Shown one piece after another: positions 1,497 through 18,592 of a DNA stretch of 64,000 nucleotides. The position numbers and the translations under genes are program-made. The notes under the pieces were generated by a model. That model ran no database searches, was not told the origin of the DNA, and worked only from the letters and a program-made list of their open reading frames with translations. The first letter of the stretch is position 1. Every line of letters begins with the position of its first letter. Location: IMG/VR virus record IMGVR_UViG_3300028591_003923, positions 32,001 through 96,000 of that record, one strand, 5' to 3'. The stretch is from a virus. Its lineage: Duplodnaviria > Caudoviricetes.

Positions 1497-1525
1497 TTGA
1501 CAAACTTAAAAAATTCTGATATAAT
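1497..1525 (+). promoter_or_regulatory. consensus sigma-A promoter driving the ncRNA locus
   Basis: TTGACA 1497-1502, 17 bp spacer, TGn-TATAAT 1517-1525; no convincing + strand ORF for 1.4 kb downstream. Confidence 0.85.
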
Positions 1526-1704: not shown

Positions 1705-2275
1705 AAGTTAATGGTTGTGTCAAATGCAAAGAGTGCGTTATTGACTGCGGGTTAAAGGTGAGTCGTTATCACCTGAACAGCTGAGCAGAGAGGGAAATAA
1801 TCAAAGGCCAAAAGAAATACCTCGGAAGTACAGTAAAGGCACATTTACCGAAAGAGCTGTGGACGTTAACTTCTGTGAAAGGTTGGGCTGAGTGTATGAG
1901 AAAAGCTCTTGGTCCACCGTTGAATTTACCGACGTGTACCTTGAATTCTAGCTTCTATGGCGGCGGCTAGATGTGAGGATAGGTAGGTTTGACAGCTGTC
2001 ATGAATTAGGGCGAGTTACGGGCCTACAATACCGGACTGGGTGCGGGTAACATTAACCCGTCGTGCGCAAGCAATGTTAGAGCTGCCAAAGCGGTGGAAT
2101 CCGTTCGTTAGGAAGTTACGAGAGACATTCCCGTTGACGTTGCGATAGAGTCCGTGAGGTGGAACGATAGACCGCCCCTGTGTACACAACAGATGGTCTT
2201 GGGGAACACCTTTCCCCAACCAATGGCACCAATAGGAGTCGCCTTCACGCGGCGGTGCTGTTTCTACTGAGAACT
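1705..2275 (+). ncRNA. unclassified large structured RNA
   Basis: GC-richer than flanks, no credible ORF, many hairpins, long-range GTTGTGT(1714)/ACACAAC(2184) pairing, lies between twister and ROOL-like RNA. Confidence 0.55.
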
Positions 2276-2279
2276 CCTT

Positions 2280-2939
2280 ACAATTTCATAAATAAATATA
2301 CTACTTGAACTCAGTGTAGAGATGCTAAACTAGTATCGCTGAGGCGCAGGCTGACAGAGTTACCCAGGACTACGAAACAAGGATACTTGCGGATAGTTGG
2401 CTGTGGAAGCGGGGCGACCCGTGGAAAGAAGACCTGGAAGGTCAACGGCTGAAAGATGTACAGTGCGGCGCTTCGGTTATCGCAGATAAAGGTAGCATGT
2501 GGGTCGGGGATGTAATAGACGCTCCTGTGGAGAAGAATCCAAGTTAGGGACTTAGCTGGTGACTGCGTTCACACCTTGGAAATACCAATAAATTCCTTTG
2601 CCGTGAAGCGGTGAGAACCGTGTATAAGACCTGCGTGTCGCGTACGAGTAGCACAAATGGCAAGACTTGGACAGAAGGAAAATTGTACAAGTGTAATAGG
2701 TTATACACTCTTATTCTAATCCGTACAGTGTGTGAAAGTTAAAGGTAGACATTCCTTTATGGACTAATGGCTCTGCGGAGTAGTCGCTAGGGAACGGCGG
2801 CAGTAACAGTAGTTCCTGGTTATTGAGGACGGGACTTGCAACCCCGTACATGGCAGTAACTATCCATTGACTGAATATATCTGAAGGTAGCTAGAAGTAA
2901 GATGAAAGTCTCTTGTTGTATATTTATTTATGAAATTGT
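2280..2939 (+). ncRNA. ROOL-like large ncRNA
   Basis: Perfect 22 bp closing stem 2280-2301/2918-2939 enclosing ~620 nt without ORF; size, tRNA-rich Firmicutes phage context and GAGTAGCACAAA, GTGAAAG, GGTAGCT segments resemble ROOL as recalled. Confidence 0.6.
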
Positions 2940-2961
2940 TTTTTAAAGAATGGAGGCTTAT

Positions 2962-3246
2962 ATGAAAAAGGTTTATGTAAATGAGTACAATGGCGATGCA
3001 TACGAATCTGCAGAAGATTGCCTAAAGTCAGAAGAAGAATACAAAATTGAACGAGAGAAAGCTGCAGCAGCTGCCGCTAGGAAAGCAGAGTATGATGCAA
3101 GAGTAGATGCAGCTTATGATAAGGCTGAGGAAGCTTTAAATGAATATATTAGAGTACTTTCAGAAGAAACACCAATTGACGTTGATAGAGTGATGCTTGA
3201 AATGATAGCTAATGTACTGTTTAGAAAGGACGAGGACGATGACTAA
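2962..3246 (+). CDS. hypothetical coiled-coil protein
   Basis: GGAGG RBS before ATG 2962. Confidence 0.65.
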   Translation: MKKVYVNEYNGDAYESAEDCLKSEEEYKIEREKAAAAAARKAEYDARVDAAYDKAEEALNEYIRVLSEETPIDVDRVMLEMIANVLFRKDEDDD

Positions 3247-15299: not shown

Positions 15300-15797
15300 A
15301 TGTCACAGTATTTAGAGTTTTATATTAGACATAACGATGATTATCTTCCAATTGCATCATATTGCGGTAGTTCCGCATATATGGAAATGTTTGATGATTA
15401 TGTTCCAAGTTATAGTGGACTTCGTACGGTCACTGAATCAATGCTGAGTTCGGTGCGCGCGGATGTTCAGCAGAAAATTAAGGAGAATGAACAGTGCATT
15501 AAAAGAGCTGAGAAACTGAAACAGGATATTCTCCAGGCTAATAACTCAATGGAAGAGAAAGTTGAATATATGGCAGGAGAAGACCAGGCTATAGAAGAAA
15601 CGGAAGATGAAAATAGGGCACTTGATAGTGTAGACCACTTCATTGATTTCCTTTATAATATACTTGAAGAAGCTGAATTCGGTGAGCATGAGGGAATACA
15701 GAAAGATAAGTATCTCTATGCGGGTGTAGAACCTGCGATTTGTAAAGACTACGATGAAATGACTCCAGAAGAAGTAAAGGAGGCGCGCGGATGGTAA
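15300..15797 (+). CDS. hypothetical coiled-coil protein
   Basis: Promoter and AAAGGAG RBS. Confidence 0.7.
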   Translation: MSQYLEFYIRHNDDYLPIASYCGSSAYMEMFDDYVPSYSGLRTVTESMLSSVRADVQQKIKENEQCIKRAEKLKQDILQANNSMEEKVEYMAGEDQAIEETEDENRALDSVDHFIDFLYNILEEAEFGEHEGIQKDKYLYAGVEPAICKDYDEMTPEEVKEARGW

Positions 15798-17005
15798 TAA
15801 ATAAAATGGACATGCACAAGAAACGTCAACGTGCACTCGCCCATGTAGAAAAAATAGCATGGATACGTCCAATAGAGGGCGCCGACAACATAGAACTTGT
15901 CGGTGTTCTTGGTTGGGTATGTATTGCTAAAATAGGTGAGTTTAAAGTTGGTGACTGGTGCGTTTATATTGAGATAGATTCTAAAGTGCCTGAAAAAGAG
16001 TGGTCTGAGTTTCTGCGCCCGAAGCACTTTAAGATTAAGACAATGAAGCTTGGTAAGTTTAAAGTTATCAGCCAGGGTATAGCACTGCCGCTCTCTACGT
16101 TTGACATAGACATACCGCAGGAAGAGGGTAAAGACGTTACGAAGCTGCTTGGGGTTAAGTATTCTGTAAGGGAAGATAACTTTAGAAAATCAGAAATAGA
16201 TAAGTATAAAGCTATGGCGCAGCGTAGACCTGACGTGTTCAAAAAACCGTGGGCGCGCAGAATGATGAAGAACCCAATTGGAAAACGTATCATGTTTTTA
16301 CTCTATGGTAAGAAACGTGATGACCAGAAAAAGTTTCCAAAGAAGTTCCAGTTCGTGCATCCGACCGATGAAGAAAGAATAGAGAACATGCCATGGATTC
16401 TTGATGACCGCGATGCTCGTTACATTAAAACAACGAAAATAGACGGTACTTCAACTACGTTCATTCTTGAAAAGAAACTGTTCGGTTACGAATTCTATGT
16501 GCTCTCGCGCAATGTACGTCAGTTCACACCAGAACAGGGCAACTATCATTCACAAGATGAAAATGTGTATTGGGAAGTTGCAGAAAAATATAACGTAAAG
16601 GATTTCCTTATGAACTTTATAAAAGGCGGTAACTACCGTTATGTAGCTCTGCAAGGAGAAACCTATGGTTGCACTGAAAAAGGTGTAAAAATACAGGGCG
16701 ACCCGCATCACATTGGTGAACTTAGATTCGCAGCCTTCAACCTCATTGATTCTAAAATTGGACGTTGGGATTCGGTAGAAGGGCGCAAATGGTGTTCTTC
16801 GTTTGGAATACCTTGGGTGCCAATTGTAGATACGAACTGCCAGGTTGAATCAGACATGGAAGCTTTCAAACTTACTGCCGATGGACCATGTGAAATACCA
16901 GGTTCAACGGGGCTGCGCGAAGGCTATGTTTATAGGAAAGTTGGTGACCCTAACTTTTCGTTTAAGAACGTGTCAAGGAAATATTTACTGAAACATGGAC
17001 AGTAG
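15791..17005 (+). CDS. ATP-dependent RNA ligase (DRB0094/Rnl5-like)
   Basis: N-terminal PIEGADNIE OB module, KIDG motif I, QGE, EGxV, FKNVSxxYL. Confidence 0.88.
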   Translation: MVINKMDMHKKRQRALAHVEKIAWIRPIEGADNIELVGVLGWVCIAKIGEFKVGDWCVYIEIDSKVPEKEWSEFLRPKHFKIKTMKLGKFKVISQGIALPLSTFDIDIPQEEGKDVTKLLGVKYSVREDNFRKSEIDKYKAMAQRRPDVFKKPWARRMMKNPIGKRIMFLLYGKKRDDQKKFPKKFQFVHPTDEERIENMPWILDDRDARYIKTTKIDGTSTTFILEKKLFGYEFYVLSRNVRQFTPEQGNYHSQDENVYWEVAEKYNVKDFLMNFIKGGNYRYVALQGETYGCTEKGVKIQGDPHHIGELRFAAFNLIDSKIGRWDSVEGRKWCSSFGIPWVPIVDTNCQVESDMEAFKLTADGPCEIPGSTGLREGYVYRKVGDPNFSFKNVSRKYLLKHGQ

Positions 17006-17710: not shown

Positions 17711-18592
17711 ATGCAGAAATTTATAATGTGTTGTGGATTGCCAGCGTCAGGAAAAACATATTGGACAGTATATAAATGCATCGTAGAAGACGAAAATTTA
17801 GCTTTGCTTTCTTCTGATGGATTTCGTGAACTGCATCCAGAGTATGATAACAATGCAATCTTTGAATTAATGCACAAATATACAATAGAAAGCTTGGAAG
17901 CAGGGAAGACTGTAATTTACGATGCAACGAACCTGGCGCGCAAGCATAGGATGGCAATTTTGACAGAGGTAAAACGTAAGTTTCCTGCTGTGTTTTGCAG
18001 TATTGAAGTGTTCATGGCACCAATAAAGGTATTAAAGGAACGCAACTCGCATAGGACTGGCGCAGAGTGCGTACCGGATGAAGTTTTTCAGAAAATGCTG
18101 TGCAGCTTTCAGTTCCCACAGTTCTTTGAAGGCTGGGATGAGATTCATATGAACGAACATAACCAGTACCAGCTTGCTGATATGGCTAATGCGACTGACT
18201 TTGACCAGATGAATCCACATCATAAGCTTACCTTATGGGACCATTCGTCGAAGGCGCGTGAAATAATGAAAGACCACTACGGTGATGCAGTTATGCAAGA
18301 GGCAGCTTTCTTTCATGACTTGGGCAAACTCTATACTCAGACATTTGATGAGAACGGGGTCGCGCACTACTACGGTCACGAAAACGCAGGAGCATATATG
18401 TATGCACTCCATGCATTTGAGCTTGGACTTTACTCATTCAACGAGATATTAGACATACTGTTTTTAATCAACTACCATATGCGTCCATATCAATGGTCAA
18501 ACCGCACATTTCAGAAAGACCTGGAGTTATTCGGTGCAGATAAAATTAAAAAGTTAAAGTTAATTCACTTCTGCGATGAAGAAGCACATTAG
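17711..18592 (+). CDS. polynucleotide kinase (AAA_33 P-loop) fused to HD phosphohydrolase
   Basis: GLPASGKT, DATN, then HH...H...HDLGK...HE HD motifs. Confidence 0.88.
   Translation: MQKFIMCCGLPASGKTYWTVYKCIVEDENLALLSSDGFRELHPEYDNNAIFELMHKYTIESLEAGKTVIYDATNLARKHRMAILTEVKRKFPAVFCSIEVFMAPIKVLKERNSHRTGAECVPDEVFQKMLCSFQFPQFFEGWDEIHMNEHNQYQLADMANATDFDQMNPHHKLTLWDHSSKAREIMKDHYGDAVMQEAAFFHDLGKLYTQTFDENGVAHYYGHENAGAYMYALHAFELGLYSFNEILDILFLINYHMRPYQWSNRTFQKDLELFGADKIKKLKLIHFCDEEAH

Follow-up and report, generated by a model that had tools for sequence, protein, structure and literature searches.

A candidate ribozyme-excised structured RNA located ahead of ROOL in a group of rumen phages

ROOL and GOLLD are large phage RNAs (Weinberg et al. 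2017, PMC5737381; Kretsch et al. 2025, PMC12286853), and both have recently been shown to build protein-free cages. For GOLLD and for the OLE RNA, switching of a palindrome (GGCC to GAUC or AGCU) was taken as evidence for symmetric intermolecular kissing loops, and the sites argued for in this way are L9.3 of OLE and L21a of GOLLD (PMC12286853). Theta ribozymes, found in gut phages, are a minimal form of the hepatitis delta virus-like (HDV-like) ribozyme, with a cleavage-site nucleotide G1 that abuts the 3′ ends of transfer RNAs (tRNAs); their definition includes a catalytic C at the first position of J4/2 and a P4 that is absent or minimal (PMC10879173). A set of 526 theta ribozymes that are not associated with tRNAs was left without a function (Kienbeck et al. 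2024, PMC10879173). Here we describe an RNA, referred to as X, that is encoded between two putative self-cleaving ribozymes and ahead of a ROOL RNA in a 64,000-nucleotide (nt) stretch of phage DNA. This stretch, called the window, comprises bases 32001-96000 of a 129.5-kilobase (kb) IMG/VR phage record (IMGVR_UViG_3300028591_003923) that is rated complete.

The interpretation that we favour, with somewhat more confidence than doubt, is that X (A1638-U2224, ~587 nt) is a discrete structured phage RNA which is excised by ribozymes, is composed of a conserved module (M1) followed by a cargo, and is likely a free homodimeric particle. Relatives for comparison were gathered via the upstream gene, via the terminase, by ROOL searches in the records obtained, and by twister-pattern scans of viral and metagenome contigs; these phages come from rumen-type metagenomes. 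Alignments showed that the first ~140 nt are common to X and to all X′ RNAs, as we call the counterparts of X in related phages. This 5′ module, M1 (1692-1837, + strand), is present in 14 distinct sequences from at least nine lineages of related rumen phages, and occurs as a single copy in the phage genome. We propose for it four + strand helices in a constant order: helix a (1723-1728/1734-1739), helix b (1745-1750/1781-1788), which encloses helix c (1757-1761/1769-1773) and a conserved UGAACAG junction, and helix d (1790-1793/1820-1823), which is closed by a 26-nt A-rich loop. The traits of the family are these helices, a junction of the GAUA/GACAG type and an A-rich loop that has a palindrome at its centre; the window fits them, with a 2-nt GA bulge required in helix b.

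The M1 family shows significant covariation. In a plain MAFFT alignment of 13 sequences, which was not fitted to the structure, 78.9% of the cells are paired as compared to 65.0% in shuffles. The covariation score of 0.503 (versus 0.252) is reached by none of 500 shuffles, and it falls to 0.21 or less when the pairing partners are slid by 1-3 columns. Changes on both sides of a pair were found for 15 of the 19 pairs in the unfitted alignment and for 17 of the 19 in the fitted one. A covariance model derived from the M1 alignment (R1) gives 84.1 bits (E 2e-18) at the window and 70-140 bits in the relatives, and it adds a more distant M1 copy that lies behind a variant twister in contig L125. 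Searches for M1 elsewhere gave at least 118 loci with a loose pattern, mostly random and with no R1 match among the 80 listed, while a tight pattern returned the known loci and one random hit only. Behind its M1 copy, L125 carries a tRNA-like gene with a long insert (2870-3060, ending ...GGGAGUUCGAAUCUCUCUGCCGCAACCA), directly preceding an HDV-like ribozyme with a P1 of 7 base pairs (bp) (GAGACAC/GUGUCUU).

Within M1, the loop of helix d has a particular composition. Across the family it measures 21-28 nt, is rich in A, and has conserved flanks (GAAGAUA ... AAUAAUA) around a short central island. This island is self-complementary in every lineage and different in each: GGCC in the window (1806-1809, + strand) and in the sister contig L002, and elsewhere AACGCGUU, UCGCGA, CGUACG, UCACGUGA, GACGUC, GUAC, CAUG or, in L125, CCUAGG. 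The mean length of the longest palindrome in the loop is 5.17; out of 20000 loop shuffles, 173 attain this value. With no loop between its halves, a perfect palindrome is unable to fold back on itself. Furthermore, the palindromes of 6-8 nt occur once per RNA and are thus without an intramolecular partner, so that a second pairing site for them within the same molecule is ruled out. Palindrome switching, the lack of an intramolecular partner and the precedent of OLE and GOLLD together lead us to propose that X molecules probably pair with one another through this loop, with the GGCC island as the symmetric kissing-loop contact in the case of the window.

The 5′ side of X is formed by a twister ribozyme of type P1 (1633-1697, + strand), which is located outside the initially annotated interval and matches RF03160 over the full model length with 52.2 bits (E 1.3e-10); the twisters of the relatives score 50.9-57.3 bits. 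Compared to the Rfam type-P1 twister, the window copy scores below the gathering cut-off and has the same core, with all conserved nucleotides (UAA, GCC, the GUCNCAAGCC loop and GAGNG), the same helices P2, P3 and P4, and a T1 pseudoknot that covaries. The T1 contact is not scored by the Rfam covariance model. Its middle pair stays complementary in each of 18 distinct relatives, as A-U in 12, U-A in five and G-C in one, whereas the Rfam consensus has C-G. Helix P2 covaries as well (UCGU/ACGA with UCGC/GCGA). On the basis of these sequence features we conclude that the twister is real, and from the known twister mechanism it would cleave between U1637 and A1638. A scan of the species-representative genomes of bacteria and archaea in GTDB 232 gave no occurrence of the twister pattern, and thus no lead to a host or prophage. 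No hammerhead-type cores were found within X, either by eye or by cmscan.

At the 3′ side of X, aligning the window with its relatives brought up a short conserved block just upstream of every ROOL. In the window this block (2225-2278, + strand) has the layout of a minimal HDV-like ('theta'-type) ribozyme, as far as can be judged from the sequence, with a nested double pseudoknot, a G1-U wobble, a P1.1 contact and a catalytic C. The strands are arranged in the order P1 5′, P2 5′, P3 hairpin, P1 3′, a short joiner and P2 3′. P1 (2225-2230/2254-2259) has the G2225-U2259 wobble at its base and contains P3 (GCC 2241-2243 / GGC 2251-2253), of which the loop L3 reads UUCACGC; P2 is formed by 2234-2239/2273-2278 and P1.1 by C2246-G2260. 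There are 7 nt between P1.1 and the catalytic C2267, which is the first position of J4/2 (CUGA), and a P4 is lacking in the window. Cleavage is predicted at U2224/G2225. Of the Rfam models, the HDV-like ribozyme of mammalian CPEB3 comes closest (2225-2259; 10.3 bits with a gathering threshold of 35, E 2.5), and it is aligned in the same P1/P3 register starting from G2225. Covariance models cannot score pseudoknots.

In total 35 distinct instances were collected in which the strands of P1, P2 and P3 are complementary and the 3′ strand of P2 is preceded by a C-N-R-A sequence. In a 23-sequence alignment, P1 covaries at four of its six pairs and P2 at all counted pairs. The P1.1 pair C2246-G2260 is invariant in these 23 sequences, and the adjacent pair, which played no role in selecting the sequences, is C-G in 11, U-A in six and U/U in six; throughout the 35 instances UCC occurs together with GG, and UUC with GA or GU. 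The G1-U wobble is found in 23 of 23 aligned relatives, but it was required in picking the sequences. Between the window and L002, P2 is wholly exchanged (AGGAGU/ACUCCU to GGGUUA/UAACCC) and P3 changes from GCC/GGC to ACC/GGU, while a P4 hairpin is added in L002. In IMG/VR, 26 viral loci contain the core GCCUYCNCGYGGCGGUGYUG, often directly after tRNA 3′ ends and otherwise before tRNAs, ROOL or genes. Three HDV-like matches, 650-1000 nt apart, were found in each of L112, L113 and L118, which are GC-richer phage contigs. Each of these ribozymes is located in the 5′ untranslated region of one of several consecutive protein genes, just ahead of the ribosome-binding site, an arrangement that suggests ribozyme processing of a polycistronic mRNA.

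X is non-coding and belongs to no Rfam 15 family. On the + strand, no open reading frame (ORF) of 40 amino acids or more is present at 1649-2179, and the GC content of 1705-2275 (0.43-0.53) is elevated as compared to the promoter region just upstream (0.25-0.31) and the neighbouring genes (~0.3-0.37). Rfam scans were done on the whole window at gathering thresholds, and with permissive settings on 1400-2400, 1698-2224 and 2205-2295. At E<=10, neither 1400-2400 nor 1698-2224 (permissive filters) matched GOLLD, OLE, HEARO, raiA, RNase P, transfer-messenger RNA (tmRNA) or group I/II introns, and cmscan places ROOL (RF03087) at 2285-2931 only, with no second match in 1698-2224. The permissive scan of the latter region gave no family at E<=1 and noise hits only (DUF3800-XI, 14.4 bits; WT1-AS_5, 10.7 bits), and blastn in distant mode against a phage GenBank collection found no match. 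These results agree with the initial annotation, which had described 1705-2275 as ORF-free, GC-elevated and without signatures of RNase P, tmRNA or group I/II introns, and had suggested comparison to GOLLD, ROOL and OLE by cmscan. The same annotation proposed a possibly new class of structured non-coding RNA of ~570 nt; structured, non-coding and without an Rfam match it is, but the element is a composite of M1, cargo and HDV-like ribozyme. As a single unit the interval does not hold, since its last ~50 nt (2225-2275) are part of the HDV-like ribozyme, which had been overlooked.

One could also suppose that the interval is not an RNA gene but codes for protein in small ORFs or acts at the level of DNA, as an origin or operators. 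Two − strand ORFs of 67 and 46 amino acids overlap 2016-2248 (2016-2219 and 2108-2248), and the interval holds several DNA palindromes, such as TGACAGCTGTCA at 1990-2001. The ORFs were rejected as spurious: a search of 5.8 billion proteins gave a single relative for the 67-amino-acid ORF, namely the corresponding stretch of L002, and the window and L002 differ by 1-nt indels within otherwise identical conserved blocks, which break the ORFs in the sister variant. Moreover, the substitutions keep the pairing of the + strand RNA, and the interval is flanked by + strand ribozymes and ROOL. A coding or DNA-element function is therefore close to refuted, and we regard it as extremely improbable.

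Downstream of M1, X contains a lineage-specific cargo of ~390 nt (1838-2224, + strand). One other variant of it is known, which is shared by L002 and L138 (identical here) and is 86-87% identical to the window. A cargo block pattern found L002 only in IMG/VR, and a metagenome scan for window-type cargo added L138 only. Substitutions between window and L002 cluster in hairpins and are compensatory, for example GGUGA/UCACC to AACGA/UCGUU. A 5-bp hairpin directly before a conserved CGUGCGCAA changes from CGGGU/ACCCG in the window to GUAGG/CCUAC in L002, and a 3-bp hairpin with a 10-nt loop from GGC/GCC to CGG/CCG. The cargo further contains, all on the + strand, a variable hairpin (1876-1908), a conserved hairpin CUAGC..GCUAG (around 1938-1962), a hypervariable insert (2008-2061) and a stable 3′-terminal hairpin (2199-2219) that ends 5 nt before the cleavage site. 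The 12-nt palindrome UGACAGCUGUCA (1990-2001, + strand) falls within a block of 100% identity between the two cargo variants; by chance, a length of 527 nt would contain ~0.13 palindromes of this kind. It could fold into a 4-bp hairpin with AGCU as the loop, or alternatively serve as a second site of self-pairing.

A long-range helix of 11 bp (1911-1921/2090-2102, + strand) is predicted to close a domain of the cargo. It was predicted independently in both variants, and it shows two one-sided changes, each of which leaves the bases paired (U-A to U-G in one case, U-G to U-A in the other). The string GCGG-UGGAAU-CCGU, initially described as T-loop-like, is indeed present at 2091-2104. In L002, G2091 is replaced by A and UGGAAU by UGGGAUA, which fits a local hairpin and the long-range helix alike. 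Folding of both variants prefers the long-range helix over the local T-loop hairpin; because this helix takes the 5′ half of the string, the T-loop reading is doubtful. Another initial proposal, a closing pair between the 5′ and 3′ ends, was not borne out: in 12 sequences, a helix that would join the segment following the twister to the final 26 nt ahead of the HDV-like cleavage site is no better than in shuffles (z ~0).

The composition of the locus varies among the relatives. In G011 and L142 the twister is followed at once by ROOL, and in L132 and L144 by ~85 nt and then ROOL. At least ten loci have a twister, an X′ of 280-450 nt, an HDV-like ribozyme and ROOL, whereas L146 has twister, X′ and HDV-like ribozyme followed by a protein gene, without ROOL. 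In L101 and L143 other RNAs, including a tRNA and a tmRNA-like piece, lie between twister and ROOL. The 527-nt form of the window is otherwise found in L002 and L138 only. Since layouts with ROOL only, with X′ and ROOL, and with X′ only all occur, X appears from the sequence comparison to be a module that is optional and independent, and thus not a part of ROOL or a leader that is always present. The X family is small and confined to one group of rumen phages, with the cargo of the window in two sequence variants only.

The HDV-like ribozymes ahead of ROOL include those of L091-L100, for example L098:2130-2200 (− strand). Of the 11 ROOL loci in this phage group, nine have an HDV-like ribozyme no more than ~100 nt upstream, whatever precedes it, one (G011) has a twister directly upstream, and one has a tRNA. 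The 5′ ends of ROOL in this group seem to be made by ribozymes, of which we found no earlier report. This distribution would also suit a view in which X is a processing or insulating spacer: the ribozymes would then serve to define the 5′ end of ROOL, and the sequence between them would be tolerated structured filler, or a decaying remnant of other cargo, that has no function of its own. The loci with a twister directly before ROOL or ~85 nt away fit with this, as does the inter-ribozyme region, which spans 280-530 nt with varied content, including the tRNAs and tmRNA-like piece of L101/L143. Filler would, however, not be expected to remain ORF-free and GC-elevated. M1 is retained across lineages with compensatory changes, and its loop palindrome persists although the sequence changes. 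In the cargo, hairpins are maintained by different sequences in the two variants, and L146 retains the twister-X′-HDV arrangement without ROOL. We therefore consider the spacer explanation unlikely, and retain that of a discrete RNA.

Several further arrangements were observed in the relatives. In L101 (4456-5318) and L143 (− strand) the twister is followed by a stretch of unknown RNA of ~300 nt and a tRNA; further unknown RNA comes next, then a tmRNA-like tRNA-like domain with CCACCA at its end, and finally ROOL. The shorter type-B X′ RNAs (e.g. L130:1046-1200, − strand) end with a second conserved module, M3, that consists of ACCAGG-loop-CUGG, AUAAGRAUGUGCGGUU and a hairpin with loop RACCUAA. 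M3 is also found without M1 (L141) and after the HDV-like ribozyme before ROOL (L111, L128, G002), and is absent from X of the window. In L094 (G002) there are two HDV-like ribozymes (1083-1165 and 1453-1505), the first of which is located directly after the leader hairpin described below, in the place of the twister and X′. This suggests loss or exchange of modules by recombination at ribozyme boundaries.

ROOL itself is located at 2285-2931 (+ strand; RF03087, model positions 1-574, 255.8 bits with a gathering threshold of 99.1, E 3.5e-57) and is followed by a U-run at 2939-2944. Upstream, a σ70-type promoter (TTGACA-17-TATAAT with TG extension, 12/12 matches) is found at 1497-1525 (+ strand), and similar promoters precede the same operon in related phages. 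It is the probable start of a non-coding transcript of ~1.4 kb that would hold both X and ROOL. From this promoter to the end of ROOL no terminator-like site was found, except one that coincides with the P3/P1 region of the HDV-like ribozyme. The co-transcription of X with ROOL that was originally suggested is in line with this organisation, with both on the same strand, one promoter and no credible terminator before the 3′ end of ROOL, but the flanking ribozymes predict that X is released from it. The leader of the transcript contains a hairpin with a 9-bp GC stem and a CU-rich loop (CUCACUUCCUUUC; 1576-1613, + strand), as recognised from the sequence. A hairpin with a CUUUCCUUUC-type loop is kept in G001, G002, G009, G011, L101 and L125. 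L088, L089, L090 and L093 likewise have a leader hairpin at this position, and the CU-rich CUUUCCUUUC-type loop resembles the 3′ end of 16S rRNA.

The proximity of X and ROOL, which lie 60 nt apart on one strand with no + strand promoter-like site between them above scan noise, raises the question whether X is released at all. If the HDV-like element were inactive or slow, X could work in cis as a 5′ extension of ROOL, e.g. decorating or filling the ROOL cage, in the same way as the GOLLD linker carries covalently linked cargo such as tRNAs (PMC12286853). Against this, nothing that activity requires is missing from the HDV-like ribozyme, which has both the catalytic C and the G-U wobble at the cleavage site, and the maintenance of these features by covariation implies selection for cleavage. 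In addition, X′ occurs without ROOL and ROOL without X, and complementarity between X and ROOL is not above that of shuffled controls, with a longest run of 11-13 nt versus a shuffled mean of ~12.8. A function in cis thus seems improbable to us. In the literature searched, ROOL is not mentioned together with HDV-like ribozymes, and the sole paper with both ROOL and twister names them in unrelated passages.

For X as a released RNA we infer cleavage, the nature of the ends, dimerisation, stability and a cellular role along the following lines. The ~1.4-kb transcript started at 1497-1525 would carry X and ROOL. The twister would cut at U1637/A1638 and remain on X as a 5′ cap with a 5′-OH, which would also free a leader RNA of ~105 nt bearing the hairpin and a 2′,3′-cyclic phosphate. 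With the twister at the 5′ side and the HDV-like ribozyme at the 3′ side, X is predicted to be released from ROOL; the HDV-like ribozyme, after cutting at U2224/G2225, would stay on the 5′ end of ROOL, and X would end in a 2′,3′-cyclic phosphate after its terminal hairpin. The lineage-specific palindrome of the M1 loop would make a symmetric kissing contact with a second X, whereas the cargo would keep its hairpin scaffold while sequences get replaced. Instead of serving as a leader or forming a piece of ROOL, X would then most likely act as a free RNA particle that is resistant to nucleases, is a homodimer or a higher oligomer, and is produced at a rate equal to that of ROOL.

A number of observations weigh against this explanation. 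The folding energy of the single sequence is no better than that of shuffles (z -0.45 for the + and +0.62 for the − strand), and the many hairpins noted initially are on their own not above chance; folding energy being uninformative, the question of a structured RNA must be settled by comparison with relatives, from which the support for structure comes. All M1 sequences originate from one group of related rumen phages, and the covariation counts are for that reason not fully independent. The palindrome of the window is only 4 nt long (GGCC), which alone is not above chance. As the cargo is known in just two variants, most of its predicted helices are invariant. The twister score of 52.2 bits falls short of the gathering cut-off of 67.2, partly because T1 is CUC/GAG and not CCC/GGG and because P1 has only 3 bp. 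For 2225-2278 there is no significant Rfam match of the HDV type, and the 23-sequence HDV-like set was chosen by P1/P2/P3 complementarity, so that P1.1 and J4/2 are the only independent checks. Finally, X is absent from G011 and L142 and is thus dispensable, and the small family together with the uncultured state of these phages limits the reach of the findings.

The window also encodes enzymes that may act on RNA ends. An ATP-dependent RNA ligase (15791-17005, + strand) was recognised by matches to phrog_968 (E 6e-51), PF09414 (RNA_ligase) and PF21189, and has an N-terminal OB domain. At a distance of 0.7 kb lies a gene for a P-loop kinase and HD-domain protein (17711-18592; domain matches AAA_33 and HD). 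RtcB was not found in the phage. From their sequences, the ligase and the kinase/HD protein are a possible end-healing and sealing pair for 5′-OH and 2′,3′-cyclic phosphate ends. The usual reading of such enzymes is tRNA repair, and an array of at least nine tRNA genes is present at 6.6-10.3 kb of the window, which further encodes terminase, portal and structural genes. A link between the ligase/kinase pair and X is speculation. By extension, X could found a class of ribozyme-excised, self-associating phage RNA particles, with 5′-OH and 2′,3′-cyclic phosphate ends that the kinase/HD protein and ligase of the phage heal and seal to a circle, or that are protected otherwise, and with an assembly of two or more copies joined by the M1 loop alongside the ROOL cage, in which hypervariable cargo loops set the specificity for a target or partner; we offer this as a distant prospect with little chance of being right.

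The locus described here bears on the biogenesis of ROOL and GOLLD, as a ribozyme nearly always precedes the 5′ end of ROOL in this phage group, which hints at how the ends may arise. It adds a second large RNA that is predicted to be excised, in this case between two ribozymes of different classes, and it points to a possible role for orphan 'isolated' theta ribozymes, one of which appears to trim a large RNA and to form the 5′ end of ROOL. The predicted 5′-OH and 2′,3′-cyclic phosphate ends share a genome with a possible heal-and-seal enzyme pair. M1, as a compact module with palindrome switching of the OLE/GOLLD type, is a cheap candidate for in vitro dimerisation and for cryo-electron microscopy.

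Similar to the theta ribozymes (PMC10879173), the ribozyme at 2225-2278 has a nested double pseudoknot, a G1-U wobble, a 3-bp GCC/GGC P3, an HDV-like L3 and a catalytic C at the first position of J4/2, and lacks P4; furthermore, in other phages the cleavage site of the same sequence type coincides with the 3′ ends of tRNAs. Unlike the tRNA-trimming theta ribozymes, the window copy is predicted to trim a structured RNA of ~590 nt and to form the 5′ end of ROOL. X differs from ROOL and GOLLD in that it matches neither model in sequence or structure at E<=10, is bracketed by putative self-cleaving ribozymes, a feature for which the literature searched gave us no report on ROOL or GOLLD, and belongs to a tiny family in one rumen phage group. 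Like ROOL and GOLLD, X is an ORF-free, multi-helix phage RNA of ~0.5-0.6 kb that is encoded beside tRNA islands. As in GOLLD, a conserved part is combined with a variable part, and the lineage-switching loop palindrome is shared with GOLLD and OLE, by analogy with which X would oligomerise.

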